DNA from: a virus
Taxonomy: Duplodnaviria > Caudoviricetes
Virus record (IMG/VR): IMGVR_UViG_3300031994_000033
Span: 67,627 to 131,626 of that record
Reading direction: 5' to 3' (one strand)
DNA length: 64,000 nt
A program made the translations under genes and the position numbers. Below are positions 5,215 to 50,857 of the stretch, one piece after another. The notes beneath the pieces were generated by a model. The model worked only from the letters and a program-made list of their open reading frames with translations, did no database searches and was not told where the DNA came from. Each line of letters begins with the position of its first letter. Position 1 is the stretch's first letter.

Positions 5215-5565
5215 ATGGCAGAAGAAAAGAGAACAATTTCACTCATAAAGAACAACTCTGGACTAGAGATAATGACCGAGAACGGAAAATTCGAGCCGTT
5301 CTGGGGACTAATCGAGAAGAAGAGCCACGGGTACAAATTGAAGCTCGAAGACGGCCGAGAGCTCAAGTACTCTGACGGACACCGCTTCATGATCGACGGC
5401 TGGGAAGTGTATGTCGAGTCACTTTCTGTGGGAGACTCTGTTGCTGGCTCTAAGATAGTCGAGATAGAAGAAGTCACTGACACTTTCTACGGTCCTTACT
5501 CTGTGAGAGGCCATGAGTACAGCACAGTGAACGAGAACGGAGAGTCCGTTCAGCTTCATCACAAC
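5215..5565 (+). mobile_element. Atypically split intein C-fragment (IntC, 117 aa)
   Basis: Block B-like KYSDGHRF, LSVGD, block F FYGPYSV, block G HHN followed by Cys+1 (5566-5568); block A absent, in-frame TAA at 5170-5172. Confidence 0.85.
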
Positions 5566-6297
5566 TGCGAGTTCATGGGATCATCGACGACTCTGATCGA
5601 GCTGGATAAGCTAGCTAAGCTGTTTCCGACCGAGCCTAAGGAGTTCAAGTATGGCTACTTGGTCTCGATCTGGGAAGAGCCGAAGCCTGGCTATCTCTAC
5701 GTGATGGGAGTCGACACTTCGACTGGCTCTGGACTCGACTTCTCTGCAGTGCAAGTTCTAAAACTCGTCAGCAAGGACAAGTTCGAACAGGTATGCACTT
5801 TCCACGATGACAGAACGCTCGGAGGCAAGTTCAGTCAGATCATCAAGGATCTGAGCGAGTGGTACAACGACGCACTGATCGTCATCGAGAACAACGGTCC
5901 AGGAAAGCAGGTCGCTGAGGAGATATGGTACACACTGGACTGTCAGAACATCATCAACACGGATCCGCACGGAATCGGTACAAACGCCAACAAGGCTTCT
6001 AAGCTTGACGCGTGCTTGATGCTTCAGCGAGAAGTCAATCGAGACTCGCTGATCATTCACGACTCAGCTACCCTGAAGGAATTGACGACTTTCATTGAAG
6101 TGAGCCCAAACGTCTTCAAAGCGACGGCTGGCTCACATGACGACCTCGTGTCTGCTCTGTACTGGGCAGTCTACGCGATATTCCAGCCTGAGATCGACTT
6201 GGACAACCTGAAAGTCGACATGAACAAAAGGGAGGAGCTAGTTGAAGTCCCAAAAACCGTATTTCCGGACGAAGATGAAGGAATTTGGACATTCTGA
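5215..6297 (+). CDS. Terminase large subunit C-terminal (nuclease) fragment fused to a split-intein C-fragment
   Basis: After HHN|C: CEFMGSSTTLI, YVMGVDTSTGSGLDFSA, YNDALIVIENN and GSHDDLVSAL match the T4 gp17 nuclease domain; no ATPase domain in this ORF. Confidence 0.9.
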   Translation: MAEEKRTISLIKNNSGLEIMTENGKFEPFWGLIEKKSHGYKLKLEDGRELKYSDGHRFMIDGWEVYVESLSVGDSVAGSKIVEIEEVTDTFYGPYSVRGHEYSTVNENGESVQLHHNCEFMGSSTTLIELDKLAKLFPTEPKEFKYGYLVSIWEEPKPGYLYVMGVDTSTGSGLDFSAVQVLKLVSKDKFEQVCTFHDDRTLGGKFSQIIKDLSEWYNDALIVIENNGPGKQVAEEIWYTLDCQNIINTDPHGIGTNANKASKLDACLMLQREVNRDSLIIHDSATLKELTTFIEVSPNVFKATAGSHDDLVSALYWAVYAIFQPEIDLDNLKVDMNKREELVEVPKTVFPDEDEGIWTF

Positions 6298-6805
6298 CGA
6301 GCATAAGCGAGTCACTCGGAGAAAGAGAGAACGAGAGGAGAAGTCACTACGGCACTCTAACAATAAGATGGATCAGAAGCGCAAGCAGAAGCTCAGACAC
6401 ACGAGGCAGTGGAGAGAGCTGAAGGCCAGGCTGATCGCTTCGAGAGGAAAACGTGATGAACTCACTGGTCATGAGCTGACTAGAGACGACAAGCTCACTT
6501 GCCATCACATGAGACTCACCGCTGAGAAGTATGGCGAGTTCACGAAAGATGAAGAGTTCATGCTTCTGACTGAGACATCGCACAAGGTCGTTCACTGGCT
6601 TTGGGAAATGACCAAAGGCGAAGATTTTTCTATATTAAATAAACTAGAATCCGTCATTAGAAGGATGAAGGAACTTCAAGATGAAGATAGCGGGACTGGA
6701 CATGTCAGTGACCCACACGGGTGCTGTGAAACTGGAACTGGACGAGAGATTGAATATCCTGAACGCGGACTGGCTGACGTTCACGACTACCAAGAAGTAT
6801 GCTAG
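6242..6805 (+). CDS. HNH-like endonuclease (real start may be ATG 6368)
   Basis: RQWRELK...DELTG...LTCHH...LTETSHKVVH pattern. Confidence 0.6.
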   Translation: MKSQKPYFRTKMKEFGHSDEHKRVTRRKREREEKSLRHSNNKMDQKRKQKLRHTRQWRELKARLIASRGKRDELTGHELTRDDKLTCHHMRLTAEKYGEFTKDEEFMLLTETSHKVVHWLWEMTKGEDFSILNKLESVIRRMKELQDEDSGTGHVSDPHGCCETGTGREIEYPERGLADVHDYQEVC

Positions 6806-7337
6806 CGAAAACTGCATCTGGTACTCGAATGACGACTGGAACAGCAAATACGACAAATACAAGTTCATGCAGGATCGAATCCTGAAGTTTGTCGAAGACG
6901 CTGACTATGTATCGGCGGAAGACTACGCGTTCGGCGCTGCTGGAGCGACTGGCCTAGTGTTCGACCTAGCCGAGTTCGAAGGCTGGATCAGACAGTCCAT
7001 CTGGCGCATGGGAAAGCCCATCTATCTCTATTCACCGATGACTATCAAGAAGGTCTTCTCGGGCCACGGCAACTCAGACAAGAAGGGTATGTTCGACGCT
7101 TACAAGCGAGTTACGCTCGTAAAGCCTGATTTGAGCATCTTTCCTCCAGTGACTAATGGTAAGAAGGGCCAACCTGGCGCAAGTGACGTGATCGACGCTT
7201 ATGGCGCTGCTATGACGCTCATAACTGAGCTTCTAATCGAACGAGATGGACCAGAGAAGTTCCCGAAGCACATCCAGGAATTCTGGAAGAACAGAACACG
7301 AGAGGTCATTCTAGGTTACAAGGAGACGGTAAGATGA
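6681..7337 (+). CDS. RuvC-like Holliday junction resolvase
   Basis: KIAGLDMSVTHTG, VSAEDYAF, DLAEFEG, PMTIKKVFSGHGNSDK and DVIDAY: RNase H-fold catalytic pattern. Confidence 0.8.
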   Translation: MKIAGLDMSVTHTGAVKLELDERLNILNADWLTFTTTKKYASENCIWYSNDDWNSKYDKYKFMQDRILKFVEDADYVSAEDYAFGAAGATGLVFDLAEFEGWIRQSIWRMGKPIYLYSPMTIKKVFSGHGNSDKKGMFDAYKRVTLVKPDLSIFPPVTNGKKGQPGASDVIDAYGAAMTLITELLIERDGPEKFPKHIQEFWKNRTREVILGYKETVR

Positions 7338-7984
7338 GCTTACAGATAAAGGGAATATCCTTCGATGATCTGCTTTGTCAGACGATGATGTGCGTACTCG
7401 ACAACTTCACTTCAGTATTCGCTAAAGAGGAAGACGTAACGCTCACAGCTCAGAGGACAGACTGTCCGCATATCCGTGAGGTGATCCAAGCCTTTCCAAA
7501 GAAGATGGATCAGCTGCGTAAGCTATACGTGACGGAAGCTGAGATCGATCGTTCTCATCGTGAGTACAAGAAGACTGGAAATGGCACATTCCACTTCAAT
7601 TCAGTGAATCGCGAGAACAATCACGTCAATGGCGCGTGCCTCACTAGCATAGAGTACACGCAGGACGAAGTGACTGTCAACATTCGCGCATCAATCGCGC
7701 CTTACAACCTGCAGTTCGACTTGGTATTGATCTCAGACCTGATCCGCGAGCTAGGTCTGTCGCCGAAGCAGATCACGATAAAGATCGGCTACATTGCGTC
7801 AAAGCCAGTCCACAATCTCTACACATTCGTGCTATACGGGATGAGCAGAGAAGACATTCAGGACACCGCTTATGGCAGATCGATCTGGACTTCTTACGAG
7901 CGTGCTCTGACAGACAGATGTAAATTCAATAGCATGAAGGCTATTGCGAGAAAGATTCAAGAGAAACTAAAGGATCAAAAGTAA
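7334..7984 (+). CDS. Divergent thymidylate-synthase-fold protein, paralog 1
   Basis: GACLTSIEY..VNIRAS...LQFDLV aligns to the TS PC...RS.D...N/D core. Confidence 0.5.
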   Translation: MSLQIKGISFDDLLCQTMMCVLDNFTSVFAKEEDVTLTAQRTDCPHIREVIQAFPKKMDQLRKLYVTEAEIDRSHREYKKTGNGTFHFNSVNRENNHVNGACLTSIEYTQDEVTVNIRASIAPYNLQFDLVLISDLIRELGLSPKQITIKIGYIASKPVHNLYTFVLYGMSREDIQDTAYGRSIWTSYERALTDRCKFNSMKAIARKIQEKLKDQK

Positions 7985-7986
7985 AT

Positions 7987-8709
7987 ATGAGTTTACATTT
8001 CAACTGCACTGACTTTGACGACGTATTTGAGCAGACGGCCACTTGGGCCATGAACAACTTCAAGTGCAACACCTCAAGAGAGGACGATGTCACTATCGAA
8101 TGCACATCGAGAAACTACAGCAAGGGTGGCGACATCGACAGAATGGCTAAGCGTCATCTGAAGAAGATGACCCGTCTGAGAGGCATCTACGTGGAGGAGG
8201 GCGAGCTCGACCGTTCACATGCTGAGCTCGTAAAGACCGGATCATCCGACTTCCGTTTTAAGAACGTCCAGCACGAGTTCGACCACATTCATGGCGGATG
8301 TCTCACAGCTATGCACTTGACTAACGACGAAGTCACGATCACTCTGCGTGCGTCTGTCATTCCCTGGAATCTTCAGTTCGACTTGGTATTGATTTCCGAT
8401 CTTCTTGGAGAACTCGGCTTGAATCCGTCTAAGATCACGTTCAAGATCGGATATATCAGAACGAAGGTCATTCATGCGCTATACACGTATCTCTTGAACG
8501 GCTGGACGCCAGAGAAGATATGCGAGACACGATTCGGAAAGTCGATGATAGCAGCTTACACCAGAGGCTCACGTCCGACATGCAAGTACAAGAACTGGAT
8601 CAGGTTCTGCGCAAGGGTAGACAGAGTGAGAGAAGAGATGGGAATAGGACCTCTGGCACCATATCTAGAAGCAGCGAAAGCAAAAGAAAGAGCAGAAAAT
8701 GGGGTTTAG
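7987..8709 (+). CDS. Divergent thymidylate-synthase-fold protein, paralog 2
   Basis: GGCLTAMHL..ITLRAS...LQFDLVLISDL; clear paralog of 7334-7984. Confidence 0.5.
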   Translation: MSLHFNCTDFDDVFEQTATWAMNNFKCNTSREDDVTIECTSRNYSKGGDIDRMAKRHLKKMTRLRGIYVEEGELDRSHAELVKTGSSDFRFKNVQHEFDHIHGGCLTAMHLTNDEVTITLRASVIPWNLQFDLVLISDLLGELGLNPSKITFKIGYIRTKVIHALYTYLLNGWTPEKICETRFGKSMIAAYTRGSRPTCKYKNWIRFCARVDRVREEMGIGPLAPYLEAAKAKERAENGV

Positions 8710-9966: not shown

Positions 9967-10175
9967 TCACTTCAAGAGACGCTTTCATGATACTCGATCG
10001 GAACGGATTTCGCGTACCGAACGGTGGTGACAGCTACGGAGAGATCACGTACAACGGCGAACGATCGAAGCAGGTCAGAGCCTGCTTCGAAAATCGGAAC
10101 AACAAGATGTGTGAGATCGACAGACAGATCGCTATTCTTGAGGCTGAGTACTATCGTAGACATAAGGAAGACTAA
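9963..10175 (+). CDS. Short or truncated member of the tandem paralog family
   Basis: MITSRDAFMILDRNGFRV...ITYNGE matches the family N-terminus; ATGA overlap. Confidence 0.55.
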   Translation: MITSRDAFMILDRNGFRVPNGGDSYGEITYNGERSKQVRACFENRNNKMCEIDRQIAILEAEYYRRHKED

Positions 10176-10519
10176 TGGAATTAACTATAGCAGAAGCGAA
10201 AGAGATCATTGAATCGAGAGGATTGACTATCGACTCTAACATGCCGAATGATCAGAATCCTGCGATCTACTGGAAGGGCGAATGGGTCGGCTACATATCG
10301 GAGTTCAGCGTATCCATACACCAGGATCTTCCGTCTCTCGGACTGACTGAACAAGGCGAGCTGATTCCGTTCTCTGACGGCAATGCAGACCAACGGCTAT
10401 CTAGAAGGATAGACACATTGAAGGATTCGCCCAGAAGATATGAAGAAGGTCTGCGTCAGGAGAAAGTGGACGACATACGCGACTACTTCAACAGACGCAA
10501 GGACAGAACATGTGCTTGA
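10175..10519 (+). CDS. Tandem paralog family member (YF-helix)
   Basis: ...RRYEEGLRQEKVDDIRDYFNRR. Confidence 0.8.
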   Translation: MELTIAEAKEIIESRGLTIDSNMPNDQNPAIYWKGEWVGYISEFSVSIHQDLPSLGLTEQGELIPFSDGNADQRLSRRIDTLKDSPRRYEEGLRQEKVDDIRDYFNRRKDRTCA

Positions 10520-10875
10520 CATACTATGAAGCGATGAATCTTTTGAAGTCGAAAGGTATCGAGTTCGACGGCAACGAACTCCTTCTCGATGGTGAAGTCG
10601 TAGGACATCTGTGGGAAACAATGCTCGTCATATCCAAAGAAATTCCGTCTCTATACAATCGTCTGTATGCTGAAATGGAGAAGACTAGGATCGGATTGAG
10701 CAGCGCCGATGCTCAAGAAGCGATCTCAAAGGCAGTCAAATGTCTCAAATCGTCACAAGTTCGATACGAGAAGACATTGAAAGAGATGAGAATCTCCGAT
10801 ATACGCGACTACTTCAAGAGACGCAAGAACGCTGTAAACGAAATTGAACAATTTATGCTAGCGGAGATGTGCTGA
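10510..10875 (+). CDS. Tandem paralog family member
   Basis: ...RYEKTLKEMRISDIRDYFKRR. Confidence 0.8.
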   Translation: MCLTYYEAMNLLKSKGIEFDGNELLLDGEVVGHLWETMLVISKEIPSLYNRLYAEMEKTRIGLSSADAQEAISKAVKCLKSSQVRYEKTLKEMRISDIRDYFKRRKNAVNEIEQFMLAEMC

Positions 10876-11327
10876 TGCAATTGCTTGACAAGTCGAGAGG
10901 ACCGCTTCCTGGAAGCGTCGCGAACAACCGCAAGTTCGTGATCAACTATATGCGCAATCACGGATTCGAAGTCAAAGCGGACGGCCTGTCTGAATATCCC
11001 GACAAGTACAACTACTATCTTCGTGGCGAGCTAGTAGCGTTGTCGTATGAGAACGTTATGTATCTCTATCCTGTTCTGCAATCACTTGTCGAGATGGGCA
11101 TTCTAGCGCAGAGAAGAAATACTGAGATACCGTTCGATCTGCCGAGCATCGAAGTACACAATCGTCTGCAAGAGGCTGTGAAGGAGCTCAAGAACAGCTA
11201 TGACTCTTATGACGATCTAGTCAAGAAGTCGAGAGTGCAGAAGATCAGAGAGTATTTCAAGTACAGGAATATCGAGAATCAGGATGTAAAAGAGTACAAC
11301 AAGCTTATGAAAGGGCTAATGAGATGA
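10869..11327 (+). CDS. Tandem paralog family member
   Basis: ...SYDDLVKKSRVQKIREYFKYR. Confidence 0.8.
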   Translation: MLMQLLDKSRGPLPGSVANNRKFVINYMRNHGFEVKADGLSEYPDKYNYYLRGELVALSYENVMYLYPVLQSLVEMGILAQRRNTEIPFDLPSIEVHNRLQEAVKELKNSYDSYDDLVKKSRVQKIREYFKYRNIENQDVKEYNKLMKGLMR

Positions 11328-11728
11328 CGAGAGATGAAGTAGAGCTGAGAATGAAGCAGATCGGATTCGAGCTACGAAGAGAAGATCCGCAGGATCCTTA
11401 TGCTACTATCTGGCTGAACAACGAGCTCATTGGAGATCTGACTCCAGCTGGAATCGATGTAGCTATCTATCTTCCGAGTTATGTTGGTAAAAATTGGATG
11501 GCTGTCGAACGACAGAGATGCGGTTATGGTACGATAGCAAATGCGAACTACTTCAGGAATCTTAAACGCGATCTTCTCGATACTCCGAGACGCTATGATG
11601 AAGCGCTGAGGAAAGCACGAGTGAAGGAAGTACAGAAGTATTTCAAGTACAAGCAAGAGTCTCACAGGTTAGCTGATCTTGCATGGAAAACCTTGTACCC
11701 AGGATTCAAGAAGGCAAGAGGTGAGTGA
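11324..11728 (+). CDS. Tandem paralog family member
   Basis: ...RRYDEALRKARVKEVQKYFKYK. Confidence 0.8.
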   Translation: MTRDEVELRMKQIGFELRREDPQDPYATIWLNNELIGDLTPAGIDVAIYLPSYVGKNWMAVERQRCGYGTIANANYFRNLKRDLLDTPRRYDEALRKARVKEVQKYFKYKQESHRLADLAWKTLYPGFKKARGE

Positions 11729-12078
11729 TGAAGATAAAATTGTTTGAAGTGTCAAAGCTGCTAGATGAGGCAGGTTTCGAACGCAAAGGCATCGAAGTCG
11801 ATTACTTGGGAGAACGAGTTGGAAGACAGTGGCACGATGAGCTCGTGCTCTTTGACGAGCACCCGAGAATCAGCTTAAAAGACTACGAGAATGCAGACAA
11901 GACCTTCGTCAAGTACAAAGACAAAGAAGCGAAAGAGAAGATAATAGCAGCTATTCGCACGCTCAAGGAATCTCATCGAGAGTACGAGCAGAAGATCCGA
12001 TCCGACAAGGTCAGCGCTATCAAGATGTACTTCGATCTGAGAAAGGAAAGACAAGAGATGCATGAGAGGATGGTATAA
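11725..12078 (+). CDS. Tandem paralog family member
   Basis: ...EYEQKIRSDKVSAIKMYFDLR. Confidence 0.8.
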   Translation: MMKIKLFEVSKLLDEAGFERKGIEVDYLGERVGRQWHDELVLFDEHPRISLKDYENADKTFVKYKDKEAKEKIIAAIRTLKESHREYEQKIRSDKVSAIKMYFDLRKERQEMHERMV

Positions 12079-17023: not shown

Positions 17024-18400
17024 ATGATAGTATCTGGTGGACACATTTTAGCGATAGATGAAGTAGAGCACGACTTGAGCCTGTATGGAGACGGGGTCGG
17101 CCTTCCGCTTGGCGTCAGGAGAGACTACGTCGACAAGATAGAGTCCGTCTCTAGCAAGCTAGACGTGGTAGAGTTTCAAGAATGGTCGGCGCAGACTGAA
17201 CACTGGGACGTCGAGGAGTACTCTGGCGCAGATGGAATCGAAGTCAGCGGACACGTGATATTCGCTGATGCATCTCCTATCGTCGGAAGCGGATCAGTAG
17301 TGATTCTGCCAGGAGAGGACGGCTCGGTCGTCGTATCGGGAGAAGAAGTCGATCTGAGCGGCTATGCGACAGAAGAATGGGTCCGAGAGAGCTACACTCC
17401 TAAGCTAGAGCCATACGATGACAGCGTTCTGCTGGTCGGCAGCGCTAACGGCGAATACGACTGGGTCAAGATCCGTTCTTCTAAGTTCGGCAGCTCGCTC
17501 GTAGACTCTTCTGCCGATCTCGTCTGGTCTGAGGACAGCGATGCGCATCTCAGCGAGAACGCAGTGGAGCTATGGAGCGAGTTCTCCGGAATCGGATTCG
17601 GCGCAGAGAGAGCTTACGCTGACGTCGAGGGAAATCCGTTCTTGGACACTTACGCCACGATCGTGAGCGTGAGCTCTGGGCTAGCGCAGAAGCAAGACGA
17701 GCTTCGCTTCGGATATGACGCTTCTGGAGAGATCGTATCCATCAACAGCAGCGCTATAGCGCAGACCAAGCAAGAGCAGGCCGACTGGACAGAAGAAGAC
17801 TCTTCTGTTCCGTCTTATATAAAGAACAAGCCAGACACTTCTGAGCTAGTCGAGGGCTACGGCATCGTCTTGACATACGAGCAGGGAAGCCTGATCGTCT
17901 CGACTTCTGGCATGGCTAGTTCGGGCTATGTCGATCAATCAGTCTCTGGAAAGATGGACAAGTCCTCTTCAGCAGACTTCTATCCGATGGCTGCGAATCC
18001 GTCTGGCTATCTGATCCATTCTGATCTGAACGATTACGCTACGAAGTCAGATCTAGACTACGTATCGGGTGCAGTCGATGACTTATCCGATGACCTCGAC
18101 GACGTCTCCGCTAGCATACATGACGCCAAGCTGAAACTGCAGCTCGGCTCGGGCCAGGCTTCTGATACCGGGTTCACCGCAAATGCGGCATCGGACACCA
18201 CGGTGACTATTCCCGAAATGACCGGGGCTACGTCAGCTGCCAATGGTGTTGCGGGACTTGTACCTGCCCCAGCTGCCGGTGACGAGGACAAGGTCTTGAA
18301 GGGTGACGGAACATGGGGTGAAGCTGGAAGCTCAGTTAGAGTCATCTACGATGCAGTCAACGAAGAACTGCATCTCGACTTCAGCAATGGAGGTAACTAG
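17024..18400 (+). CDS. Tail fibre-like structural protein
   Basis: VDLSGYATEEWV, QADWTEED..SYIKNKP, GLVPAPAAG..LKGDGTW fibre motifs. Confidence 0.7.
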   Translation: MIVSGGHILAIDEVEHDLSLYGDGVGLPLGVRRDYVDKIESVSSKLDVVEFQEWSAQTEHWDVEEYSGADGIEVSGHVIFADASPIVGSGSVVILPGEDGSVVVSGEEVDLSGYATEEWVRESYTPKLEPYDDSVLLVGSANGEYDWVKIRSSKFGSSLVDSSADLVWSEDSDAHLSENAVELWSEFSGIGFGAERAYADVEGNPFLDTYATIVSVSSGLAQKQDELRFGYDASGEIVSINSSAIAQTKQEQADWTEEDSSVPSYIKNKPDTSELVEGYGIVLTYEQGSLIVSTSGMASSGYVDQSVSGKMDKSSSADFYPMAANPSGYLIHSDLNDYATKSDLDYVSGAVDDLSDDLDDVSASIHDAKLKLQLGSGQASDTGFTANAASDTTVTIPEMTGATSAANGVAGLVPAPAAGDEDKVLKGDGTWGEAGSSVRVIYDAVNEELHLDFSNGGN

Positions 18401-18401
18401 T

Positions 18402-19193
18402 ATGGCAGTGACTTATTCGCAGAATGGCGTGATTGTTAGAGGAGTATATTCATACCATAAGACATATGAATTTGGTAATTACCTTGTGGATTCTAATGGA
18501 TATATAGGTGAAGTACTTACACCTAGTTCTGGAAAAAGAACTAATGTTTCGATAGTAGATGCCAATGCAGATTTTTCAAATTCTGGATTAGGACAAGTCA
18601 CTTTTATTGAGTATGGAACAGTAGAAATTCAAGGAATTGAGCATAATACAGTAAAAGCAGGTTCTTTAATATGGCTTGCTGAAAATCTTAAAGTTGAATT
18701 TGCTGACATACCATTATTGACTGTCAACGACTTTCCTTCTACAAAAGGAATGTGGTGGATGAATGATGATAAACAAGCAGCGTTGACTAAAAGAAGAGGT
18801 GCATTGTACAACTGGTATGCTGCAAAGTACATAGATGATAATAAGTCTACATTACTTCCATCAGGTTGGCGAATGCCTACATATAATGATTGGCAGGCAT
18901 TAGGCACAGCTGCTGGAGGTGGCTCTATTGCTGGTAGAGTTTTGAAGTCTAGTAGTCAAATGTGGCAATATGGTTGGGATGGCGACGATTTGCTAGGATT
19001 TTTTGTTCAGGAGTCTGGAAGTATTCGCCAATCAGGGCAATATAGGGATTTGGAAGCTAATTATTGGACTATCTCACCTATTGGTAGTAACTATCACAAT
19101 TTTTATTTTAATAGTGATGTCGATAGACTTGGAACGTATCCTGACCCTCCAGAACGTGGTTATGCATTGCGACTGGTAAAGGACATTACCTAA
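18402..19193 (+). CDS. Fib_succ_major (FISUMP)-domain protein
   Basis: WLAENL, GALYNWYAA, LPSGWRMPT..DW, GYALRLVKD. Confidence 0.8.
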   Translation: MAVTYSQNGVIVRGVYSYHKTYEFGNYLVDSNGYIGEVLTPSSGKRTNVSIVDANADFSNSGLGQVTFIEYGTVEIQGIEHNTVKAGSLIWLAENLKVEFADIPLLTVNDFPSTKGMWWMNDDKQAALTKRRGALYNWYAAKYIDDNKSTLLPSGWRMPTYNDWQALGTAAGGGSIAGRVLKSSSQMWQYGWDGDDLLGFFVQESGSIRQSGQYRDLEANYWTISPIGSNYHNFYFNSDVDRLGTYPDPPERGYALRLVKDIT

Positions 19194-19205
19194 AGGAGCA
19201 AGTAT

Positions 19206-19880
19206 ATGTCAGGATATTTATTGAAATTTAAGCAAAGATATTCAGTCAAGATAGGCGGACGCAAGTACCCGGTTGTCAAGATTGGGAATCAGTTGTGGAT
19301 GGCTGAGAATTTGGACTGGAAGTTCACTGGATGCGATATTGCTCCAGCAGGGTCCCCTTCAACTCCTTCCGCTTGGTACTATAACAATGACGAAGTGAGC
19401 TATGGAATAGATGGGACATACAAATGTGGATTGTTATATAACTGGTATGCGGCTAAGTACATAGACGATAATAAGGCTACATTGTTGCCTGATGGTTGGC
19501 ATGTTCCTTCGTTTGGTGAATATGAAACATTATGTACTGTAGTTGCTCCTGAAGGTGCTGGTTATCATGTCAATTATAAAGCAGGACGAAAGTTAAGAGC
19601 TATTGATGGATATATTGTTAGTTCAAGTCCTATTTGGCCTTCTGATTGGAACGGTAATGATGAAAGTGGATTCCATGCACTACCTGCTGGCTCAAGAGAT
19701 TACTATGGAAATTTTAGTGGACTAAATGATTATTCATGCATATGGAGTATAACGCCTGTCGGCAAAGAAGATAATATATATTATTTTCAAATGTGGAAAG
19801 GTGAAGAGTCTGCTTCATATAGTGCATGGGGCAATAAATTAACAGGATTTTCTATCCGTCTTGTCAAGGACCTAACATAA
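19206..19880 (+). CDS. Fib_succ_major (FISUMP)-domain protein
   Basis: VVKIGNQLWMAENL, GLLYNWYAA, PDGWHVPS, GFHALPAG, GFSIRLVKD. Confidence 0.85.
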   Translation: MSGYLLKFKQRYSVKIGGRKYPVVKIGNQLWMAENLDWKFTGCDIAPAGSPSTPSAWYYNNDEVSYGIDGTYKCGLLYNWYAAKYIDDNKATLLPDGWHVPSFGEYETLCTVVAPEGAGYHVNYKAGRKLRAIDGYIVSSSPIWPSDWNGNDESGFHALPAGSRDYYGNFSGLNDYSCIWSITPVGKEDNIYYFQMWKGEESASYSAWGNKLTGFSIRLVKDLT

Positions 19881-22901: not shown

Positions 22902-24026
22902 ATGGATATACATACACAGAATCACCTGAATTATAGTGGCCGAGTCAATTTAGGAAGCTTTTATACCCCTTATAAATATGTCATGCTTGTTAAAGGATGG
23001 CTTGAAAAATACGGGCTGACGGATGGCATGACTATTTTGGATAGTTCTTGTGGCTATGGGGCTTTTTTTGAACTTCAGGACCTTTTGCCGAACAACACCT
23101 ATATTGGAAACGATATCGATTCTGTGGCCGTAGGCAAGGCGTCGGAAATGTTTCCGAAGGTTCGGACTTACAACAAGAACGCCCTTTTGAATGTCTCGCG
23201 GAAGCTTTATAATATCGGTGCAAAAGACAAGCTTGTTGTGGTGGGGAATCCTCCTTATAACGATGTCACCTCCCAGATAAATCAGAAGGTTAAAACTTCT
23301 GATATGCAAATCGATGCCGATATAAAAACCAGGGATTTGGGATTGTCGTCGTTGTTGTCCTATAACAAACTTGCGGCAGATTATGTTGCTGTTTTGCATC
23401 CGCTTTCTTACCTGATAAAGAAGGCGAACTGGACGGCAGCGCGAAAGTTCTTCTTGAACTACAAGTTGCTGGAGCATGTGGTTTTTAATAGCCAGGAATT
23501 TGCAAACACTTCCAAGACGACCGGGTTCCCAGTAGTGGTCGCTTTTTACGAAAGAAACCCGTTCGAAAGCTTGAGTTACGAGGATGTCGTCCGGATGACT
23601 TTCCGTACGGTGGAAGGCAAGGAATTTTCTCTTTCGAACTGGGACTATGTGGCGGATTACATTGAAAAATATCCGCACAAGAACCGGTATGAACCCGAAA
23701 TCCTCTATTATACGCTTCGCGATATCAATGCGCTGAAGCGCAGCAGGACCTTCGTTAAGGATCGTTGCTCCAATGCGGTTGATGTGGACCCGGAAAAACT
23801 TCCTTATTACTGCTATTTGGATTGCTTCAAGAAATATGCGAAAATTCCCTATTATATGGGGAATTTCGATGTTCCCTTTGACAGGAAGACTTTCCAGAGC
23901 ATAGAGAAGGCTGTTGTAGCCATATCGAAATATGACCATCCGGACGTTTTTGGGGAGAGCCGCAAACCCTCTGCAAAGACAGAGCAAAAGGTAATAGACT
24001 ATATTGAAGGTATCTTGAACCGATAA
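22902..24026 (+). CDS. N6-adenine DNA methyltransferase (gamma class; resembles the PabI/HpyAXII family)
   Basis: GSFYTP, ILDSSCGYGAF (motif I), VGNPPYND (motif IV); AGGAGG RBS; codon usage unlike the phage core. Confidence 0.85.
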   Translation: MDIHTQNHLNYSGRVNLGSFYTPYKYVMLVKGWLEKYGLTDGMTILDSSCGYGAFFELQDLLPNNTYIGNDIDSVAVGKASEMFPKVRTYNKNALLNVSRKLYNIGAKDKLVVVGNPPYNDVTSQINQKVKTSDMQIDADIKTRDLGLSSLLSYNKLAADYVAVLHPLSYLIKKANWTAARKFFLNYKLLEHVVFNSQEFANTSKTTGFPVVVAFYERNPFESLSYEDVVRMTFRTVEGKEFSLSNWDYVADYIEKYPHKNRYEPEILYYTLRDINALKRSRTFVKDRCSNAVDVDPEKLPYYCYLDCFKKYAKIPYYMGNFDVPFDRKTFQSIEKAVVAISKYDHPDVFGESRKPSAKTEQKVIDYIEGILNR

Positions 24027-33380: not shown

Positions 33381-33806
33381 ATGAAGTCACTAATCGACAG
33401 ACAAGAGATCAAGAAAGGGCTAGAAGATCCTAATGTGGACACTAGCGACTACAAGAGAGCTAAGAAGAGGTTCGATGAAGCTAAGGCGAACTATCGTTCG
33501 GAGAAACAGTCTTACAACAGGTTCATCCGATACAAGATGAACCGAATGAACGTGAATACGATTGGGATGCTCAGCAAGCTGTATAAGTCACTGAAGAAAG
33601 CTAGAGACAGATACTGCGAAGCTAAGGTGAATCTGAACACGCTGACGATCACTACATTCTCAGAGAAGATCGATCTCGAAATGTCGATCAAATCGGCAAA
33701 GAACCTGTCCATCATGCTGTCGAAGATCGCAGATGACGATACGTTCGAAGAAGATGACGTCATCTCTGTATCGCTGTTCAAGAACAGTGAAGGGAGGGTT
33801 CTGTAG
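33381..33806 (+). CDS. Hypothetical basic helical protein
   Basis: GAGGAG RBS. Confidence 0.7.
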   Translation: MKSLIDRQEIKKGLEDPNVDTSDYKRAKKRFDEAKANYRSEKQSYNRFIRYKMNRMNVNTIGMLSKLYKSLKKARDRYCEAKVNLNTLTITTFSEKIDLEMSIKSAKNLSIMLSKIADDDTFEEDDVISVSLFKNSEGRVL

Positions 33807-34282
33807 TGGATAAGTTCGAAATCTTGTCTGGAGAAGTAGCTAGCGTCACTGTTCTCATCAAAGTGTTCGATGAAGCTTGCCGTCCTACCGTCAACGAGAA
33901 AGGGGACTGGATCGATCTGAGAGCAGCTGAAGACGTATTCATGGGAATGGGAGAATTCCGTCTCGTTCCGCTCGGCGTAGCTATGAAGCTGCCAGAGGGC
34001 TACGAAGCGCACATCGCTCCTCGCTCTTCGACATTCAAGAACTACGGAATCATCATGACCAACTCGGTCGGGATAGTAGACAACAGCTACTGTGGACCTA
34101 ACGACATGTGGAAGTTCCCTGCCCTGAAGATGGGATCTGGACAGAATGGTCCGCTCATCAAGAAGGGCGAGAGAATCTGTCAGTTCCGCATCGTCAAGAA
34201 GCAGCCCTCGATTCAGTTCGAAGACAGCACACTGCAATATCAGGAAGATCGTGGCGGATTCGGAAGCACGGGGGTCAAGTGA
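33806..34282 (+). CDS. dut: dUTPase (trimeric)
   Basis: DWIDLRA, APRSS, GIVDNSYCG, ERICQF, RGGFGSTG. Confidence 0.95.
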   Translation: MDKFEILSGEVASVTVLIKVFDEACRPTVNEKGDWIDLRAAEDVFMGMGEFRLVPLGVAMKLPEGYEAHIAPRSSTFKNYGIIMTNSVGIVDNSYCGPNDMWKFPALKMGSGQNGPLIKKGERICQFRIVKKQPSIQFEDSTLQYQEDRGGFGSTGVK

Positions 34283-34926
34283 TGGCTATTCAAGAGATGA
34301 ACAACAATGAATTCCACGGGGTATGCACTGAAGAGGGAATCAATGGAATGACCGTTGAAGTTCTGAAGTACCCCACTTCGATGGACTGGCAGTGGGTCAA
34401 GTTCCTTGCTCTCAACACTGTCGGCAAGAACTACATTCTCGATGACGGAAAGCCTCTCAGTGATGAGCTAAAAGTCAAATATCTTACTTCAGAGCACTCG
34501 CCTATCCGCTACCTCCAGTTCATTATTCGTATGCATATCCCGTACTGCGACTCTGTATGCTTCTGTCGTCATCACACTGGCGTAGAGCATTACGTCCAGT
34601 CGCAGCGCAACGATAGGCAGGACAAATATGACCGCTATCAGGAACCGCAGGGTCACTATGTCACCCACGTTATGGTCGTGAACGCTCAAGAGCTCATGTT
34701 CATGGCGAGAAAGAGACTCTGTCGCATGGCTTCTAAGAACTGTCAGAAGATCATGATGATGATACGCATGGCTGTTCTAAGCCATAACCCAGAGTTCGAG
34801 ACAGTGCTTGTTCCAAACTGCGAATATCTTCACAAGTGTCCAGAGTTCAAGAGCTGTGGATATTGGCACACCAGAGAAGTTCTAGCAGCTGCTGAACGCG
34901 CTTCAAAGATCGGAGAAGATAAATAG
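34282..34926 (+). CDS. thyX: Flavin-dependent thymidylate synthase ThyX-like
   Basis: EHSPI, RHH...QSQR, NAQEL...RLC, LVPNC; start reassigned to the TGATG overlap. Confidence 0.75.
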   Translation: MAIQEMNNNEFHGVCTEEGINGMTVEVLKYPTSMDWQWVKFLALNTVGKNYILDDGKPLSDELKVKYLTSEHSPIRYLQFIIRMHIPYCDSVCFCRHHTGVEHYVQSQRNDRQDKYDRYQEPQGHYVTHVMVVNAQELMFMARKRLCRMASKNCQKIMMMIRMAVLSHNPEFETVLVPNCEYLHKCPEFKSCGYWHTREVLAAAERASKIGEDK

Positions 34927-36791: not shown

Positions 36792-36931
36792 TCATGTTCT
36801 ATATCGTCATAGGAGTAGTAGTTCTATATCTCTGTCTATTGATCGCTTGCATTATAAAGTGTGTCAAGAGGTCTGACAAGCAGTTCAGGATAGTCGATTC
36901 GATTTTTGATGAGGACGAACACAATGGCTAA
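36788..36931 (+). CDS. Small single-TM protein (47 aa), not in the ORF track
   Basis: MIMFYIVIGVVVLYLCLLIACIIKC...; overlaps both neighbours. Confidence 0.55.
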   Translation: MIMFYIVIGVVVLYLCLLIACIIKCVKRSDKQFRIVDSIFDEDEHNG

Positions 36932-37790
36932 GTTAGCAATCTCAATCTCTGGCGGCGGTGCGCTTGGTTGCGGACCGCTTCAGTTCATGTGCAGGTTGGA
37001 ATCCGATCTAGGAAAGAAGCTCACAGATCAGAGCGTGGCTTTCGCTGGAACTTCAACTGGCGCTATCATCGCAGCATGTCTAGCAGAGTGTATGTCTGCT
37101 CACGACATCTTCGATCTGTACAAGAACAACTTGAAGAAGATCTTCACGAAGTACCCGTGGTACAAGAGAATCGAGCCTAAGTGTCCGACTTACGACAACT
37201 CGACTCTGAAGGATCTGCTCAAGAAGAATCTCGACGGCAACATCATGGATTGGAAAAAGCCTATCTTCATTCCTACGACTGCTATGAACGGCAAATCTCG
37301 TGAGAAGGTATGGGATCTTGGTGATCCTAAGGTAGAGAAGTGGTTCGCTGTTCTGACGAGCGCTGCTGCACCACGATACTTCGACGTGATCGACAGAGAC
37401 GGCATCTCATACTGCGATGGCGGTATGTGGGCTAACGATCCAGTATCTTGTCTACAGTCTGGTTTGAAGAACATGTGCTTCAACAAGAAGTACAAGATTC
37501 TCACGTTCGCTACCTGCATGATGACTCCAAATACCTCGAGAGGCAACAAGACCATGTTGGGTTGGGGCGAGTACATCTTAGAGGACTGGGTCGCTACGAC
37601 TGGTAACGCTAACTTCTTTGAAGCGAGAGCGAACGTGGGCTACAACAACATCTTCCGTGCTTCTCCTGAGCATCCGACAAAGATCAAGATGGACAAGACA
37701 GACGACGATACGATCAATCATGTCATCGAAGTCTGGGATAAATACTACGACTCGGTCCGAGACCAGGTTGTGAAGTTTGTAAAGGAGTAA
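36924..37790 (+). CDS. Patatin-like phospholipase
   Basis: SGGGALG, GTSTG, SAAAP.YF, DGG..AN.P. Confidence 0.9.
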   Translation: MAKLAISISGGGALGCGPLQFMCRLESDLGKKLTDQSVAFAGTSTGAIIAACLAECMSAHDIFDLYKNNLKKIFTKYPWYKRIEPKCPTYDNSTLKDLLKKNLDGNIMDWKKPIFIPTTAMNGKSREKVWDLGDPKVEKWFAVLTSAAAPRYFDVIDRDGISYCDGGMWANDPVSCLQSGLKNMCFNKKYKILTFATCMMTPNTSRGNKTMLGWGEYILEDWVATTGNANFFEARANVGYNNIFRASPEHPTKIKMDKTDDDTINHVIEVWDKYYDSVRDQVVKFVKE

Positions 37791-40474: not shown

Positions 40475-41350
40475 ATGAAAGAACGAAAAAGAGTGCTGCT
40501 TGTCGACATGGCGAACATGGCGATACGGACAGGCTGCAAGTGCTATAGAGACGATCCGACTGACACTACATACAACAACTGGAAGTGCGAAATTCTAGAG
40601 AATCTCGCTAGTCTTGTTCAGAAGACCGAGTCTACTTCAGTGATTCTATGTCTAGAAGGAAAGAAGAACTGGAGATATGAGATTTTCGACGCTTACAAGG
40701 CTCATCGAAAAGAAGAGAAAGCTAAATCTAAGCTCGACTTCGACACGTTCTATCCGATGGCAGACGAGTTCTGCGAGAAACTCCGTCAGTACATTCCGAA
40801 CATCTATCAGCTCAAGGTTGAAGGAACAGAAGGAGACGATCTCATCGCTATCTTGACGAAGAATCTCACTCCAAAGTATGAAGTGATCTGCGTATCGACA
40901 GACCGAGACTTCTATCAGCTTCTGAAGTATAACGGCTACAAGCAGTATCATCCGATCAAGCGGCAATATGTCCACGTCGTAAATCCGGAACGCTACCTTC
41001 TCGAAAAAGTAGTAGTTGGAGACAAGGGAGACGGGATTCCTCACATCAAGTCGAGAGTCTCAGTGAAGACGGCAGCTGATATAGTAGAGAACGGTCTCGA
41101 AGAGTGGCTGAGTGAACAGACGGATGAGGTGAGAGCGAACTTCGAGCGCAACAAGAAGCTGATCGACTTCGACTGCATTCCGATACATGTTCAGTTGAAG
41201 GTGATGGAAGAGTTCAAGAAGCTCAGATTCAGCAGCATGAGCATGCGAGACATGTCCTCGTTTCTGATCGCTGCTGGACTGGGCAATCAGTTCGACAAGA
41301 TTCCAGAATACGCTAACACTTTCATCAGACTTGAGAGAATCGATGTGTAA
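40475..41350 (+). CDS. rnh: T4-type RNase H / 5'-3' exonuclease
   Basis: LVDMAN, NWRYEIF..YKAHR, EGDDLIA, STDRDFYQL, GDKGDGIP. Confidence 0.9.
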   Translation: MKERKRVLLVDMANMAIRTGCKCYRDDPTDTTYNNWKCEILENLASLVQKTESTSVILCLEGKKNWRYEIFDAYKAHRKEEKAKSKLDFDTFYPMADEFCEKLRQYIPNIYQLKVEGTEGDDLIAILTKNLTPKYEVICVSTDRDFYQLLKYNGYKQYHPIKRQYVHVVNPERYLLEKVVVGDKGDGIPHIKSRVSVKTAADIVENGLEEWLSEQTDEVRANFERNKKLIDFDCIPIHVQLKVMEEFKKLRFSSMSMRDMSSFLIAAGLGNQFDKIPEYANTFIRLERIDV

Positions 41351-41852
41351 CAATCCCAAGAAATTCAACCGCTTCTATGTCGATGTGCTCAACTCGCTAA
41401 AGAAGTACTCGACCTGCTCAAGACTCCAAGTCGCAGCGATCTTGGTGAAGGATTCTAGAATTCTCAGCTCTGGCTACAACGGCGTCGCTAAGGGCTGCAC
41501 CGAGTGCAACAAGATCTACAAGAGAACTCCTGACGGCAAGATCACTTGGAACAGCGCTCTAACGCGTCAGACCAGGTTCTTGACAGAGGAAGAGTATCGC
41601 AAAGAGCATCATGAGTTCGCAGACAAGTACGAGATTCACGCAGAGATGAACTGCTTGGGCTTCGCACTGAAGAACAACACGGACATCACGGGAGCACAGC
41701 TCTATCTGACTACTAGTCCTTGTCTGAACTGCTGCAAGCTCATTCTCACTTCTGGGATCAAGGAAGTGTACTACATCGAGGAGTATGATGATCGAAAAGG
41801 CATCGAGTATCTGCTTCAAAATGGTGTAATTTGCGAGAAAATCGAGCTTTAG
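41343..41852 (+). CDS. dCMP deaminase
   Basis: STCSRLQVAA, SGYNG, IHAEMN, TTSPCLNC. Confidence 0.92.
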   Translation: MCNNPKKFNRFYVDVLNSLKKYSTCSRLQVAAILVKDSRILSSGYNGVAKGCTECNKIYKRTPDGKITWNSALTRQTRFLTEEEYRKEHHEFADKYEIHAEMNCLGFALKNNTDITGAQLYLTTSPCLNCCKLILTSGIKEVYYIEEYDDRKGIEYLLQNGVICEKIEL

Positions 41853-47640: not shown

Positions 47641-48006
47641 ATGAAGTCATTTAAAGAATACATAAATGAGTCTGAGCTGTTAGTCGAGATGGCACGTGTA
47701 AATGTACGTGAGGTTGACGGGTCAATGCCGACTAACAAATACGACGTTAGGATATGGTCTAATGATCATCAACCACCTCACATTCACGTTACCTCTCCTG
47801 ACAGAAAAAACGCTGACTATGAAGCCATTTTCGAGATCGAGACCGGTAATCTCATTAAGGTCCTATTCTCTAAAAAGAATGGTGTAAGCTTTGATAATTT
47901 AGAGAAATTAGTTAAACAGTGGTTGAATGAGAAAAGTTCTCAAGTTAAAGATAAGACTAATAGAGAAATGTCTATGATCGCATGGGAACAGAACAATGAA
48001 CAGTAG
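47641..48006 (+). CDS. DUF4160-like protein with capsid-targeting-like leader
   Basis: MKSFKEYINE|SELLVE|MARV; IWSNDHQPPHIHV; WEQNN. Confidence 0.75.
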   Translation: MKSFKEYINESELLVEMARVNVREVDGSMPTNKYDVRIWSNDHQPPHIHVTSPDRKNADYEAIFEIETGNLIKVLFSKKNGVSFDNLEKLVKQWLNEKSSQVKDKTNREMSMIAWEQNNEQ

Positions 48007-48448
48007 GCTAGTCGTATTCAGAGGGATTCCTGGGTCAGGAAAGAGCACAATGGCTAAGAGGATGAGAGACAGTCTCATCGAACTCGGCTACACTGTCGGC
48101 TACTACGAGGCTGATATGTACTGGATGACTGAAACTGGAGAGTATCTGTTCGATCCGAAAAGACTATCAGACGCTCACGCTTGGTGCAGAAGCAAGGTAC
48201 GAGAAGCCCTTCACAACTGCGACGTCGTTATTGTCGCGAACACTAACCTCACAAAGAAGGAAATGGATCTATGGCAGCAGATCGCCTTATCGGAGCATGT
48301 CAAGCTGGAGGTCTTCCACTTGAAGACAGAGTATGGGAACATTCACAACGTTCCAGCGGAGACTATCGAGAAGATGAAGAATAGAGAGATAGACTGGCCA
48401 GGAGAGATAGTCATAAATGAGGCTAGTCAAGAGGGATATGATGAATAA
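47996..48448 (+). CDS. P-loop kinase (AAA_33/polynucleotide kinase-like)
   Basis: RGIPGSGKST, EADMY, VIVANTN, HNVP.ETIEKM. Confidence 0.85.
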   Translation: MNSRLVVFRGIPGSGKSTMAKRMRDSLIELGYTVGYYEADMYWMTETGEYLFDPKRLSDAHAWCRSKVREALHNCDVVIVANTNLTKKEMDLWQQIALSEHVKLEVFHLKTEYGNIHNVPAETIEKMKNREIDWPGEIVINEASQEGYDE

Positions 48449-48587
48449 GATGTATGTGAAGCCAGAGATGAGAATCGTCGAGGGTGAGCCTCAATATCTT
48501 CTTGCTGCTTCTGGCGAAGAAGATGATCCGTGGTGGGTTCCGCCAGAAGAGAAAGAGGGCTGTGATACTCCGTGGTGGTGCCCGTAA
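48438..48587 (+). CDS. 49-aa peptide with YxKPxM leader-like N-terminus and PWW repeats, not in the ORF track
   Basis: MMNKMYVKPEMRIVEGEPQYLLAASGEEDDPWWVPPEEKEGCDTPWWCP; GAGGG RBS; overlaps both neighbours. Confidence 0.65.
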   Translation: MMNKMYVKPEMRIVEGEPQYLLAASGEEDDPWWVPPEEKEGCDTPWWCP

Positions 48588-48754
48588 TGAGTGACTCCAT
48601 GATGTCTGTCTTTCCAGCAGAAGAGCTCAAGCGGATGATCATGCACGTAGATCGATTCGACACGGACGTGGTCACCGACGAGAAGCTCAATGTGATAAAG
48701 GCAGAAGAGAAAGTGGAAGAGATCACTGAACAGATCATCACCGAGAACTTATAA
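48587..48754 (+). CDS. Small hypothetical protein
   Basis: TAATG coupling. Confidence 0.55.
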   Translation: MSDSMMSVFPAEELKRMIMHVDRFDTDVVTDEKLNVIKAEEKVEEITEQIITENL

Positions 48755-48763
48755 GAGACAACT

Positions 48764-49306
48764 ATGAAAAGACGAATCATGCTCGACATGGACGGAGTGC
48801 TTTGTGACTTCGACTGGCAAGTGAAAAACTTTCACGCTATCAAAGATAACGGAAAGTGCGACTGGAAGCTGATGGACAAGATAGGACCGCAGTTCTGGTC
48901 GAACATGAAGTGGAACGAAGAGGGACACAAGCTCTACAACGCTCTTATCGAACTCGTAAAGAAGAACCCTGACTTAGAGCTGGGCATCGCATCTGCTATC
49001 TTCCTGCACAACGGCAAGAAGGGTAAGCGCGAGTGGATAGCTGCTAACTGTCCAGAGATCCAGATGCAGAACATCGAGATCATAAACAAGGGAATCGACA
49101 AATGGCACTTCCTCCAAGAGTCCGACATCCTGATCGATGACAACAAGGACAACGTAGATCTGCACGTCAAGGCGCATCCAGACTCTCGAGGCATCGTGTT
49201 CACGGACTCTAAATCTGCACTGTTCAGACTGGATATGATCCTCGCCGATGACAGAGAATTCGACAAATTGTGCGAAGATCACGACAAAATGCTAGAAAAT
49301 TCTTAG
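48764..49306 (+). CDS. HAD-family 5'(3')-deoxyribonucleotidase-like
   Basis: LDMDGVLCDF, K..W, ILIDD. Confidence 0.85.
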   Translation: MKRRIMLDMDGVLCDFDWQVKNFHAIKDNGKCDWKLMDKIGPQFWSNMKWNEEGHKLYNALIELVKKNPDLELGIASAIFLHNGKKGKREWIAANCPEIQMQNIEIINKGIDKWHFLQESDILIDDNKDNVDLHVKAHPDSRGIVFTDSKSALFRLDMILADDREFDKLCEDHDKMLENS

Positions 49307-49314
49307 TTTCTCTA

Positions 49315-49343
49315 TTTACAAATAGGACGAAAATGTCTATATT
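49315..49343 (+). promoter_or_regulatory. sigma70-like promoter
   Basis: TTTACA-N17-TATATT followed by AACTTCAACAAGGACC. Confidence 0.8.
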
Positions 49344-49373
49344 GTAGATGTAACTTCAACAAGGACCACTATT

Positions 49374-49709
49374 ATGAAAACTCCGATGTTCGCATTTCTC
49401 TTAAGGGAACACCTCAAGATCAGCATCGATCGTGCGAATAAGCTAGCTTCTGTATTGACAGAAGAGACTCTACGCTGTATGCAGTATGAGCTCGAGGAAC
49501 AGAAGGCGTTCTTTCTCCAACGCGAAAAGGACTTGCAGGCTCGCTACGACGCTCTGAAGAACGAGTCTCTGAACGACATGATCAAGCGTATCGCTGCTGA
49601 AGTAGTCGACAAAGAGATCAAACAGAACTTGTCGATTGAACCGAACCCGGATCCCTACTCACACTCTACCACTCCGGTTCTTGAGTGGAAAGGCGAGGAA
49701 ATAGCATGA
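49374..49709 (+). CDS. Hypothetical protein
   Basis: AAGGA RBS. Confidence 0.7.
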   Translation: MKTPMFAFLLREHLKISIDRANKLASVLTEETLRCMQYELEEQKAFFLQREKDLQARYDALKNESLNDMIKRIAAEVVDKEIKQNLSIEPNPDPYSHSTTPVLEWKGEEIA

Positions 49710-50857
49710 ACGAATTAACTCTTGAAAAGTGCTTAGAATATGCAGATCTCGGATGGCTAGACAAGCACGAGTCTGCTGACGGAAAGCTTGTCGGCTTCAA
49801 GTACTCTCGACAGACAGTCTATGACGGCGCTTGGGACGAGATCACGCTCCAGTGCCGTGGCATCGTGTTCGATAAGTCTACTGGTTACATCATCGCTCAT
49901 CCGTTCAACAAGTTCTTCAACTATGAAGAGATCTACGACGTGACTACTAATGACGGCTACATGCGTCTTACTAAGCTCGGTGAAACTCTAACGAGACTGG
50001 GACACGAATTTGAGCCGAACATCACGAAGGACTTCCGTGCTATGGACAAGCTTGACGGATCGCTCGGCATCTTGTTCTACTACGACGGAAAGTGGATCAT
50101 CAAGACCGCTGGATCATTCGATTCAGATCAGGCTAAGTGGGCTCAGAACTGGTTCGACACTAAGATCGACGACGAGCGCAAAGAATTGCACTTGGACCAG
50201 AACTGGACTTACTGCTTCGAGATCATCTCCAACGAAGACCCGCACGTATGTCACTACGACTACGAGGGCTTAGTTCTGTTAGGATTCTTCGACGAGAATC
50301 ACACAGAGGCAGAGATGGTCGAGATCGCGGATCTCGCTTACAAGCTGGACATCCGTTACTCTGAAATGATCTACTTCGACTCGATGGAGAAGATGATCGC
50401 GCAGGCTAAGAAGCTCGACGTGGATCACGAGGGCTTCGTAGTGACATTCTCGTCTGGGTTCAAGATGAAGATCAAGGGCGTAGAATATCTCGAGAAGTTC
50501 AAGATGATGTCTGCAATCTCTAAGAAGGACATCCGCGCTCACTTCGATAAAGATGCATTGATAGTAGAGCCAGAGTACAAAAAGATGATTCCGGAAGAGC
50601 TCTGGGATATGCGCGAATACGCTGACAAACTTGAACGCAAATGCGAAGAGATCAAATTTAAGGCGGAAGATTCTGCTGCTGAGCTATTGAATCTTGAAGG
50701 TCGTGAACGCTACGACAAGGCTGTAGAAATCCTGGGCAAGAGATACGCTTGCCTGGCAATCAACTTGGCGACTGGAAGGAAGATCAACGAACTCGTCTTC
50801 AAGTTCGCAGTAGAAGAACTAAAGTCTAAAGGAGACGACGATGACGACAACGAATAA
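49706..50857 (+). CDS. RNA ligase, T4 Rnl1-like
   Basis: QCRGIVF, PFNKFFNYEE, motif I DKLDGSL, FEII, EGFVV, KMKIKG.EY. Confidence 0.9.
   Translation: MNELTLEKCLEYADLGWLDKHESADGKLVGFKYSRQTVYDGAWDEITLQCRGIVFDKSTGYIIAHPFNKFFNYEEIYDVTTNDGYMRLTKLGETLTRLGHEFEPNITKDFRAMDKLDGSLGILFYYDGKWIIKTAGSFDSDQAKWAQNWFDTKIDDERKELHLDQNWTYCFEIISNEDPHVCHYDYEGLVLLGFFDENHTEAEMVEIADLAYKLDIRYSEMIYFDSMEKMIAQAKKLDVDHEGFVVTFSSGFKMKIKGVEYLEKFKMMSAISKKDIRAHFDKDALIVEPEYKKMIPEELWDMREYADKLERKCEEIKFKAEDSAAELLNLEGRERYDKAVEILGKRYACLAINLATGRKINELVFKFAVEELKSKGDDDDDNE

Follow-up and report, generated by a model that had tools for sequence, protein, structure and literature searches.

A divergent, unnamed family of thymidylate-synthase-fold proteins, duplicated in tandem in a gut phage and associated with cytosine-modification cassettes

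The 64,000-nucleotide stretch of viral DNA analysed here (the window) forms the final 64 kb of a 131.6-kb Caudoviricetes record, IMG/VR IMGVR_UViG_3300031994_000033 (positions 67,627 to 131,626), which is estimated to be 52% complete. It carries two adjacent genes, A and B, whose products are very divergent relatives of thymidylate synthase (TS) (Table 1). Both open reading frames (ORFs) lie on the plus strand where an earlier note, made from the sequence alone, had placed a pair of tandem paralogs with shared motifs; the proteins are 43% identical over 218 columns (BLASTP over the whole length, E 4e-62) and have in common the motifs G[AG]CLT, RAS and NLQFDLVLISDL. The start of A overlaps the stop of the preceding RuvC-like gene through an ATGA, with AAGGAG 9 nt upstream of A, the gap between the stop of A and the start of B is 2 nt, and Shine-Dalgarno-like sequences precede both ORFs.

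Neither protein has a match in Pfam at E values up to 1, nor in PHROGs, and searches of GenBank phages with A and B (megablast and tblastn) returned nothing. The TS family PF00303 has no match anywhere in the 131.6-kb record, A and B included. Nothing significant was found among PDB sequences, where the best profile match, diphthine synthase (E 0.29), was taken as chance. The protein atlas lead for B reached only 0.87, and an exhaustive search of 1.8 billion representatives with the family profile gave only 10 clusters, a result that understates the family because the members found in the gene cassettes described below score just 20-70 bits.

The structure of B was modelled with AlphaFold2 (AF2) on 19 homologs, and the model is confident (predicted local distance difference test, pLDDT, 92.2; predicted template modelling score, pTM, 0.88), with low confidence in the loop at residues 97-103. 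Foldseek against PDB placed AfhB of phage HY126, a dCMP hydroxylase, at the top (9iqu, E 3.4e-6), followed by T4 dCMP hydroxymethylase, MilA and many ThyA entries, all at a probability of about 1.0, and AfhB is the nearest solved structure to the models of both A and B. In BFVD, the best fold matches are uncharacterised viral proteins, one of them from Pseudomonas phage PMBT14, which rank above annotated TS and gp42. The models thus show the TS alpha/beta core in A and B, a fold which the earlier note had proposed from motifs, and in B the predicted core spans residues 1-173 and is followed by an extra, family-specific helical domain at about 174-240. The CMP 5-hydroxymethylase MilA (PDB 5jnh, 5b6d), at 8% sequence identity, is a 318-aa, folate-dependent enzyme of a bacterial antibiotic pathway with a ribonucleotide substrate.

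The active-site residues were read from an hhalign comparison of the family with a nine-member TS set that includes E. coli ThyA, T4 gp42 and RB69 gp48, in which the sole confident stretch pairs B 115-155 with ThyA 160-204, ungapped. In this alignment, weak overall (E 0.02), C105 of B pairs with C146 of ThyA, R121 with R166, A122 with S167, V124 with D169 and D132 with N177. C105, R121, D132 and Y68 are invariant across 22-23 family members of 15-25% pairwise identity, in agreement with the catalytic Cys named earlier. In ThyA and T4 gp42, the nucleophilic Cys, the Arg that binds the 5'-phosphate and the pyrimidine-specificity residue make up the core of covalent catalysis and substrate recognition. 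The Asp expected at the specificity position was also recovered, as Asp132 in B and Asp129 in A; this Asp is invariant family-wide, the ThyA-type Asn is absent, and the Arg-to-Asp spacing of 11 in B equals that of ThyA R166-N177, T4 gp42 and RB69 gp48. The Asp of the canonical RSxD motif is missing, as had been noticed: the ThyA D169 position is Val in B (R-A-S-V), Ile in A (R-A-S-I) and Val/Ile across the jumbo-phage clade to which the window belongs, and Glu in most distant family members, which gives a motif R-x-[ST]-E. The residue three before the Cys (the position 143 equivalent), within the loop modelled with low confidence, varies among H, Q, R, K and N in the B and A clades and is not acidic.

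Like E. coli ThyA (PF00303), A and B have the core beta-sheet and J-helix, with the Cys146, Arg166 and R+11 positions aligned ungapped. Unlike ThyA, they have Asp for Asn177, Val/Ile for Asp169 and Leu for His147, their core is about 25-50 residues shorter, and the SRR arginines, the His207/Tyr209 equivalents and the Trp80/Trp83 folate segment were not found, the alignment being weak there. That the pair is an ordinary, merely divergent TS converting dUMP to dTMP has next to no probability: the TS fold with its conserved Cys and Arg would fit, whereas the Asp at 177, the loss of Asp169, the absence of a PF00303 match and the presence of a ThyX-like gene do not. The earlier note had held that dTMP is supplied by other genes of the window, and these were confirmed for dUTPase and dCMP deaminase, while ThyX is present as a divergent copy. 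The ThyX-like gene comes straight after the dUTPase gene, with an overlap, scores just 15 bits in Pfam and has the signature RHH...QSQR in place of RHR...S.R; its product has an atlas score of 0.98, with 28 of 30 matches in viral ThyX clusters.

Table 1. Genes and key codons of the A/B locus and of pyrimidine supply in the window
Feature	Position	Strand	Remark
Large terminase C-terminal (nuclease) half, with intein-like segment in front	5215..6297	+	First gene of the block holding A and B
RuvC-like Holliday junction resolvase	6681..7337	+	Directly 5' of A, 4-nt overlap; in TerL_C-HNH-RuvC-[A]-B block
Paralog A, 216 aa, minimal TS-fold protein	7334..7984	+	Lineage-specific tandem duplicate of B
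A, catalytic-type residues	Cys102 (7637-7639), Arg118 (7685-7687), Asp129 (7718-7720)	+	Motif R-A-S-I
Paralog B, 240 aa	7987..8709	+	Conserved member of new TS-like family
B, key residues	Cys105 (8299-8301), Arg121 (8347-8349), Val124 (8356-8358), Asp132 (8380-8382)	+	
Trimeric-type dUTPase	33806..34282	+	dUMP supply
Divergent ThyX-like flavin-dependent thymidylate synthase	34282..34926	+	dTMP supply independent of A/B
dCMP/cytidine deaminase of pyrimidine nucleotide metabolism	41331..41852	+	

Most of the known pyrimidine modifications of phages start from a TS homolog; these are 5-hydroxymethylcytosine, 5-methylcytosine, 5-hydroxymethyluracil and, since 2025-26, 5-hydroxycytosine through a flavin switch. 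Asp177 marks dCMP-directed TS homologs and, together with nucleoside triphosphate (NTP) pyrophosphatases, correlates with modified-cytosine phage DNA (PMC8670742); Asp177 homologs yield 5-methyl-dCMP or 5-hydroxymethyl-dCMP (10.1101/2024.12.05.627091), and one TS branch has switched to flavin/O2 chemistry, producing 5-hydroxy-dCMP, with D169N as diagnostic residue (PMC13326640). Judged by its residues, the A/B family matches none of the published Asp177-homolog signatures exactly. It has no detectable sequence similarity to the 5-hydroxy-dCMP synthases HY126 AfhB, RB69 gp48 and DLP3 gp80 (PDB 9iqu, 9iqc; PMC13326640). A flavin- and O2-dependent dCMP 5-hydroxylase (5hodCMP synthase) of this AfhB/RB69 gp48 type would agree with the nearest solved structure and with the Asp at 177; it is nevertheless very improbable, as the diagnostic D169N is replaced by Val/Ile here and Glu in relatives, and the acidic residue at 143, introduced by L143E in those synthases, is not conserved. 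The extra C-terminal helical domain is a further difference from them. The hosts are gut or rumen anaerobes or Clostridium perfringens, in which O2-dependent chemistry would be implausible, and no arabinose or sugar-activation genes were seen nearby.

The family extends well beyond the window. Its cultured carriers include the C. perfringens phages P21, CPD4 and Clo-PEP-1 and, by fold search, Pseudomonas phage PMBT14. As a control of specificity, T4, RB69, NotTheCreek and ctIqW946, each with other TS homologs, gave no match to the family profile. Within the thymidylate synthase / dCMP hydroxymethylase superfamily, the A/B family forms an unnamed branch that has diverged very far.

The place of the family in other phages is constant, in a cassette composed of a dUTPase_2-like NTP pyrophosphatase, one or two copies of the family gene and a canonical dCMP-type TS homolog. 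All 12 of the inspected loci, from phages of 40-88 kb, have the family gene either flanked directly by the dUTPase_2-like gene and the PF00303 homolog or located 1.2 kb beyond the latter, and the PF00303 homologs in these loci carry RSxD plus Asp177. The same trio is found in C. perfringens phages including P21, where it is annotated as hypothetical, hypothetical and thyA. A distant member (305 aa) lies in a module of a complete 68-kb phage in the order dNMP kinase, dUTPase_2, PF00303 TS homolog (RSND plus Asp177), two small ORFs, TS-like gene and primase-helicase. Co-occurrence was examined from a starting set of 227 viral contigs with the PF00303 subfamily; the family profile matched in 24 of 39 records with that subfamily and in 21 of 30 among those at least 90% complete. 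Conversely, all three complete genomes reached through the new family possess a PF00303 homolog. The complete relatives of this phage, G001 (98%) and G002 (100%), have a PF00303 homolog (RSCD plus Asp177) beside a P-loop protein and a dUTPase_2-like gene, about 85-90 kb from the B locus, and its absence from the window's record is most likely due to the missing half of that genome.

These cassettes support a link of the wider family to pyrimidine modification. The pathway logic is that of T4 gp42 with the gp56 dCTPase and the gp1 kinase: alongside a TS-fold protein whose nucleophile is Cys and whose specificity residue is Asp, the cassette encodes a dCTPase-like pyrophosphatase and, in some cases, a dNMP kinase. 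Unlike T4 gp42, whose role in the cassettes is already held by the separate PF00303 homolog, the family lacks the RSxD Asp in the jumbo clade and any PF00303 match, and T4 and RB69 have no family member. On balance, we consider it probable from these sequence features that the family is catalytic on a cytosine mononucleotide, as a step in phage cytosine modification; this role is preferred because of the invariant Cys/Arg/Asp triad and the fixed place in the dCTPase/dCMP-TS cassette. The earlier proposal that the pair itself makes a modified pyrimidine agrees with the embedding of the family in such cassettes and less well with the separate dCMP-type TS homolog of G001 and G002. Because this canonical homolog is the more obvious maker of modified dCMP, A and B would be an additional enzyme rather than the core of the pathway: in a cytosine-replacement pathway, the pair probably acts on cytosine nucleotides in an accessory capacity, and it is probably neither the sole modifying enzyme nor an obligate heterodimer.

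A non-catalytic or regulatory partner with the TS fold, which would heterodimerise with the canonical dCMP-type TS homolog or bind and channel its product, is an unlikely alternative to this catalytic role. The strict adjacency to the PF00303 homolog and the loss of many canonical TS residues are what such a partner would predict, and the TS fold dimerises through its beta-sheet; however, Cys, Arg and Asp invariant at 15-25% identity are unexpected in a pseudoenzyme, and about 85 kb separates the two genes in the jumbo clade.

Copy A was found only in the window, L012 and L014/L015, while B occurs alone in L013, where it is 80% identical, and in L016-L020. The maximum-likelihood tree does not resolve where A branches; it gives A a long stem of 1.27 substitutions per site, amid short B branches. 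Since it is limited to the closest relatives and long-stemmed in the tree, A is a lineage-specific, fast-diverging duplicate that retains all family-invariant residues. This distribution bears on a heterodimer of A and B as the enzyme that makes the modified pyrimidine of the phage, a functional unit suggested in the earlier note. TS enzymes are obligate dimers, both copies keep every invariant residue, and independent tandem double copies of the family gene recur in G007 and G033; against this, B is solitary in L013, L016-L020 and most cassettes, which makes an obligate heterodimer unlikely, and the canonical homolog of the complete relatives would be able to do the primary step. The heterodimer as modifying enzyme is accordingly given little chance, slightly less than the non-catalytic partner.

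Under the preferred catalytic role, the protein would bind a cytosine (deoxy)nucleoside monophosphate, and Cys105 would add to C6, thereby activating C5. The step that follows would be one outside the repertoire of the neighbouring canonical enzyme, with either dCMP or the 5-substituted dCMP of that partner as substrate. The second substrate or cofactor may not be methylene-tetrahydrofolate, or folate may be bound unlike in ThyA, because Val/Ile replaces D169 (Glu in most relatives), the stretch from helix B to H appears shortened and the C-terminal helical domain is new. A more specific version has the family as a second catalytic TS-fold enzyme that carries out a C5 reaction, either without folate or with a different cofactor, on dCMP or the 5-methyl-/5-hydroxymethyl-dCMP of the partner, perhaps by way of an exocyclic-methylene intermediate, to yield an as-yet-unidentified cytosine modification in phages of anaerobes (rumen jumbo, gut and C. 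perfringens); we regard this version as possible, and tentative. Biologically, the family likely serves to make a non-canonical cytosine that is built into phage DNA as a counter-defence.

Several observations weigh against a cytosine-modifying role. The alignment of the family to the TS profile is statistically weak (hhalign probability 2%), residue equivalences beyond B 115-155 are unreliable in the local alignment, for which reason the N-terminal ones were dropped, and equivalents of ThyA R21, R126'/R127', E58, Y94, H207 and Y209 were not identified, the profile alignment having near-zero confidence there. Nine of the 30 complete genomes with the partner TS homolog have no detectable family member; therefore, the family is not essential to the pathway of that homolog. 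Jumbo-clade phages have the gene away from the cassette, among genes for packaging and recombination and possibly under late expression, an odd setting for a precursor-level enzyme. Counted in favour of the preferred role are metatranscriptome contigs from three studies, some of them multi-gene, which span TerL_C through B and beyond at 90-100% identity and are compatible with co-transcription without proving it; they could also be DNA carry-over. Lastly, the palindromes of the record, which the earlier note had described as not avoided, behave so in part: GATC (observed/expected 1.12), TCGA (1.07), AGCT (0.98) and GTAC (0.96) conform, but CGCG (0.47), GGCC (0.69), CCGG (0.72) and ACGT (0.80) are depleted. 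Likewise, ATTAAT is absent against 6.9 expected, CCGCGG is absent, and CATATG occurs 7 times against 37 expected. The depletion suggests selection against particular restriction sites, and fully restriction-proof DNA does not fit the depleted CG-rich palindromes; these statistics neither prove nor exclude a protective modification. Kinases and glycosyltransferases had been suggested as further signs of modification. The surroundings of A and B showed neither a glycosyltransferase nor any other tailoring gene, and Pfam scans of 20 ORFs from the initial 34 kb of the record, which precede the window, found no glycosyltransferase. G001 and G002 have GT2 matches that are weak or distant from both the B and the PF00303 locus.

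The block TerL_C-HNH-RuvC-[A]-B, followed by a small ORF, is kept in nine IMG/VR loci, and TerL_C is preceded by GATAAATA, which resembles a late promoter. Exact copies of the T4 late promoter, TATAAATA, number six in the window against 1.2 expected, and none is directly upstream of the TerL_C-to-B block. Such an operon would suit a TS-fold enzyme that modifies DNA after replication, during packaging, and so would the fact that equivalents of the extra phosphate-binding arginines were not identified. Outside the jumbo clade, however, the gene is always within a mononucleotide-metabolism cassette, and to our knowledge no TS-fold enzyme has a polynucleotide substrate; an enzyme acting on DNA is a slim prospect, on a par with the AfhB-type hydroxylase. 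The family is a new, unnamed variant within the TS superfamily that is relocated and duplicated in the jumbo clade. In the course of this, the gene would have moved in the sheep-gut, T4-like clade from the cassette into the terminase/RuvC operon, and in the closest relatives a tandem duplication would have been followed by the fast divergence of copy A.

The first gene of this block is itself unusual, as the large terminase is split in complete relatives into two genes more than 100 kb apart. The product of 5215-6297 has about 115 intein-like residues ending in HN, then Cys and the nuclease domain (Terminase_6C), and the ATPase half in G002 (L132 185-1081; Terminase_6N, 298 aa) has a FAQEY motif followed by a tail of about 30 residues starting with Cys. 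The two halves look like an atypically split intein, with a short N and a long C piece, which would join them by trans-splicing. The HNH endonuclease gene overlaps the 3' end of the terminase gene. A second Terminase_6N match with an in-frame TAG was found in the 248-kb relative (G001:C1:70462-71043); it could represent a pseudogene, another split piece or a gene with recoding.

Near-identical DNA was found in a sheep gut metagenome, and relatives in bovine and other gut samples; the close relatives are jumbo phages of 243-248 kb. The gene content is distantly T4-like and includes a gp15-like tail sheath stabiliser, baseplate and neck proteins, SbcCD-like genes, an S77 prohead protease, a T4-type RNase H and an Rnl1-type ligase. 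Downstream of B, at 10175-12078, five or more small paralogous genes (114-152 aa) follow one another in tandem; they share a C-terminal motif like IRDYF..RK, and their copy number and order differ among related phages. Three proteins with PF09603 (Fibrobacter succinogenes major paralogous domain), including one tandem pair, are encoded at 18303-19880 and, in the whole record, at G000:C1:31970-32731; they may function in receptor binding or at the surface, and they faintly suggest a rumen host of the Fibrobacter or Bacteroidota type. The window also has a homolog of the Thoeris inhibitor Tad3, an anti-defence gene (59252-59962; PF25185, E 2.7e-21). A polynucleotide kinase (PNK)-like P-loop kinase, a 5'(3')-deoxyribonucleotidase-like protein and the T4 Rnl1-type RNA ligase are clustered at 47996-50857, probably as an RNA-repair module, followed by a DUF2828/DUF7788 protein (51372-52937). 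Additionally, a patatin-like phospholipase gene (36906-37790) and a weak N6-adenine DNA methyltransferase-like gene just under the Pfam cut-off (22902-24026) are present.

The A/B family is a branch of the TS fold that escapes Pfam and PHROGs and is annotated merely as hypothetical protein, although it is the third gene of a widespread cassette of dCTPase and dCMP-type TS and keeps the Cys, Arg and Asp. If catalytic, it would mark either an unknown step of cytosine replacement or a new cytosine derivative, and would bear on the resistance of phages to restriction and CRISPR, on defences that detect DNA modification and on enzymatic tools for sequencing epigenetic marks. The cultured carriers make the role of the family directly testable.
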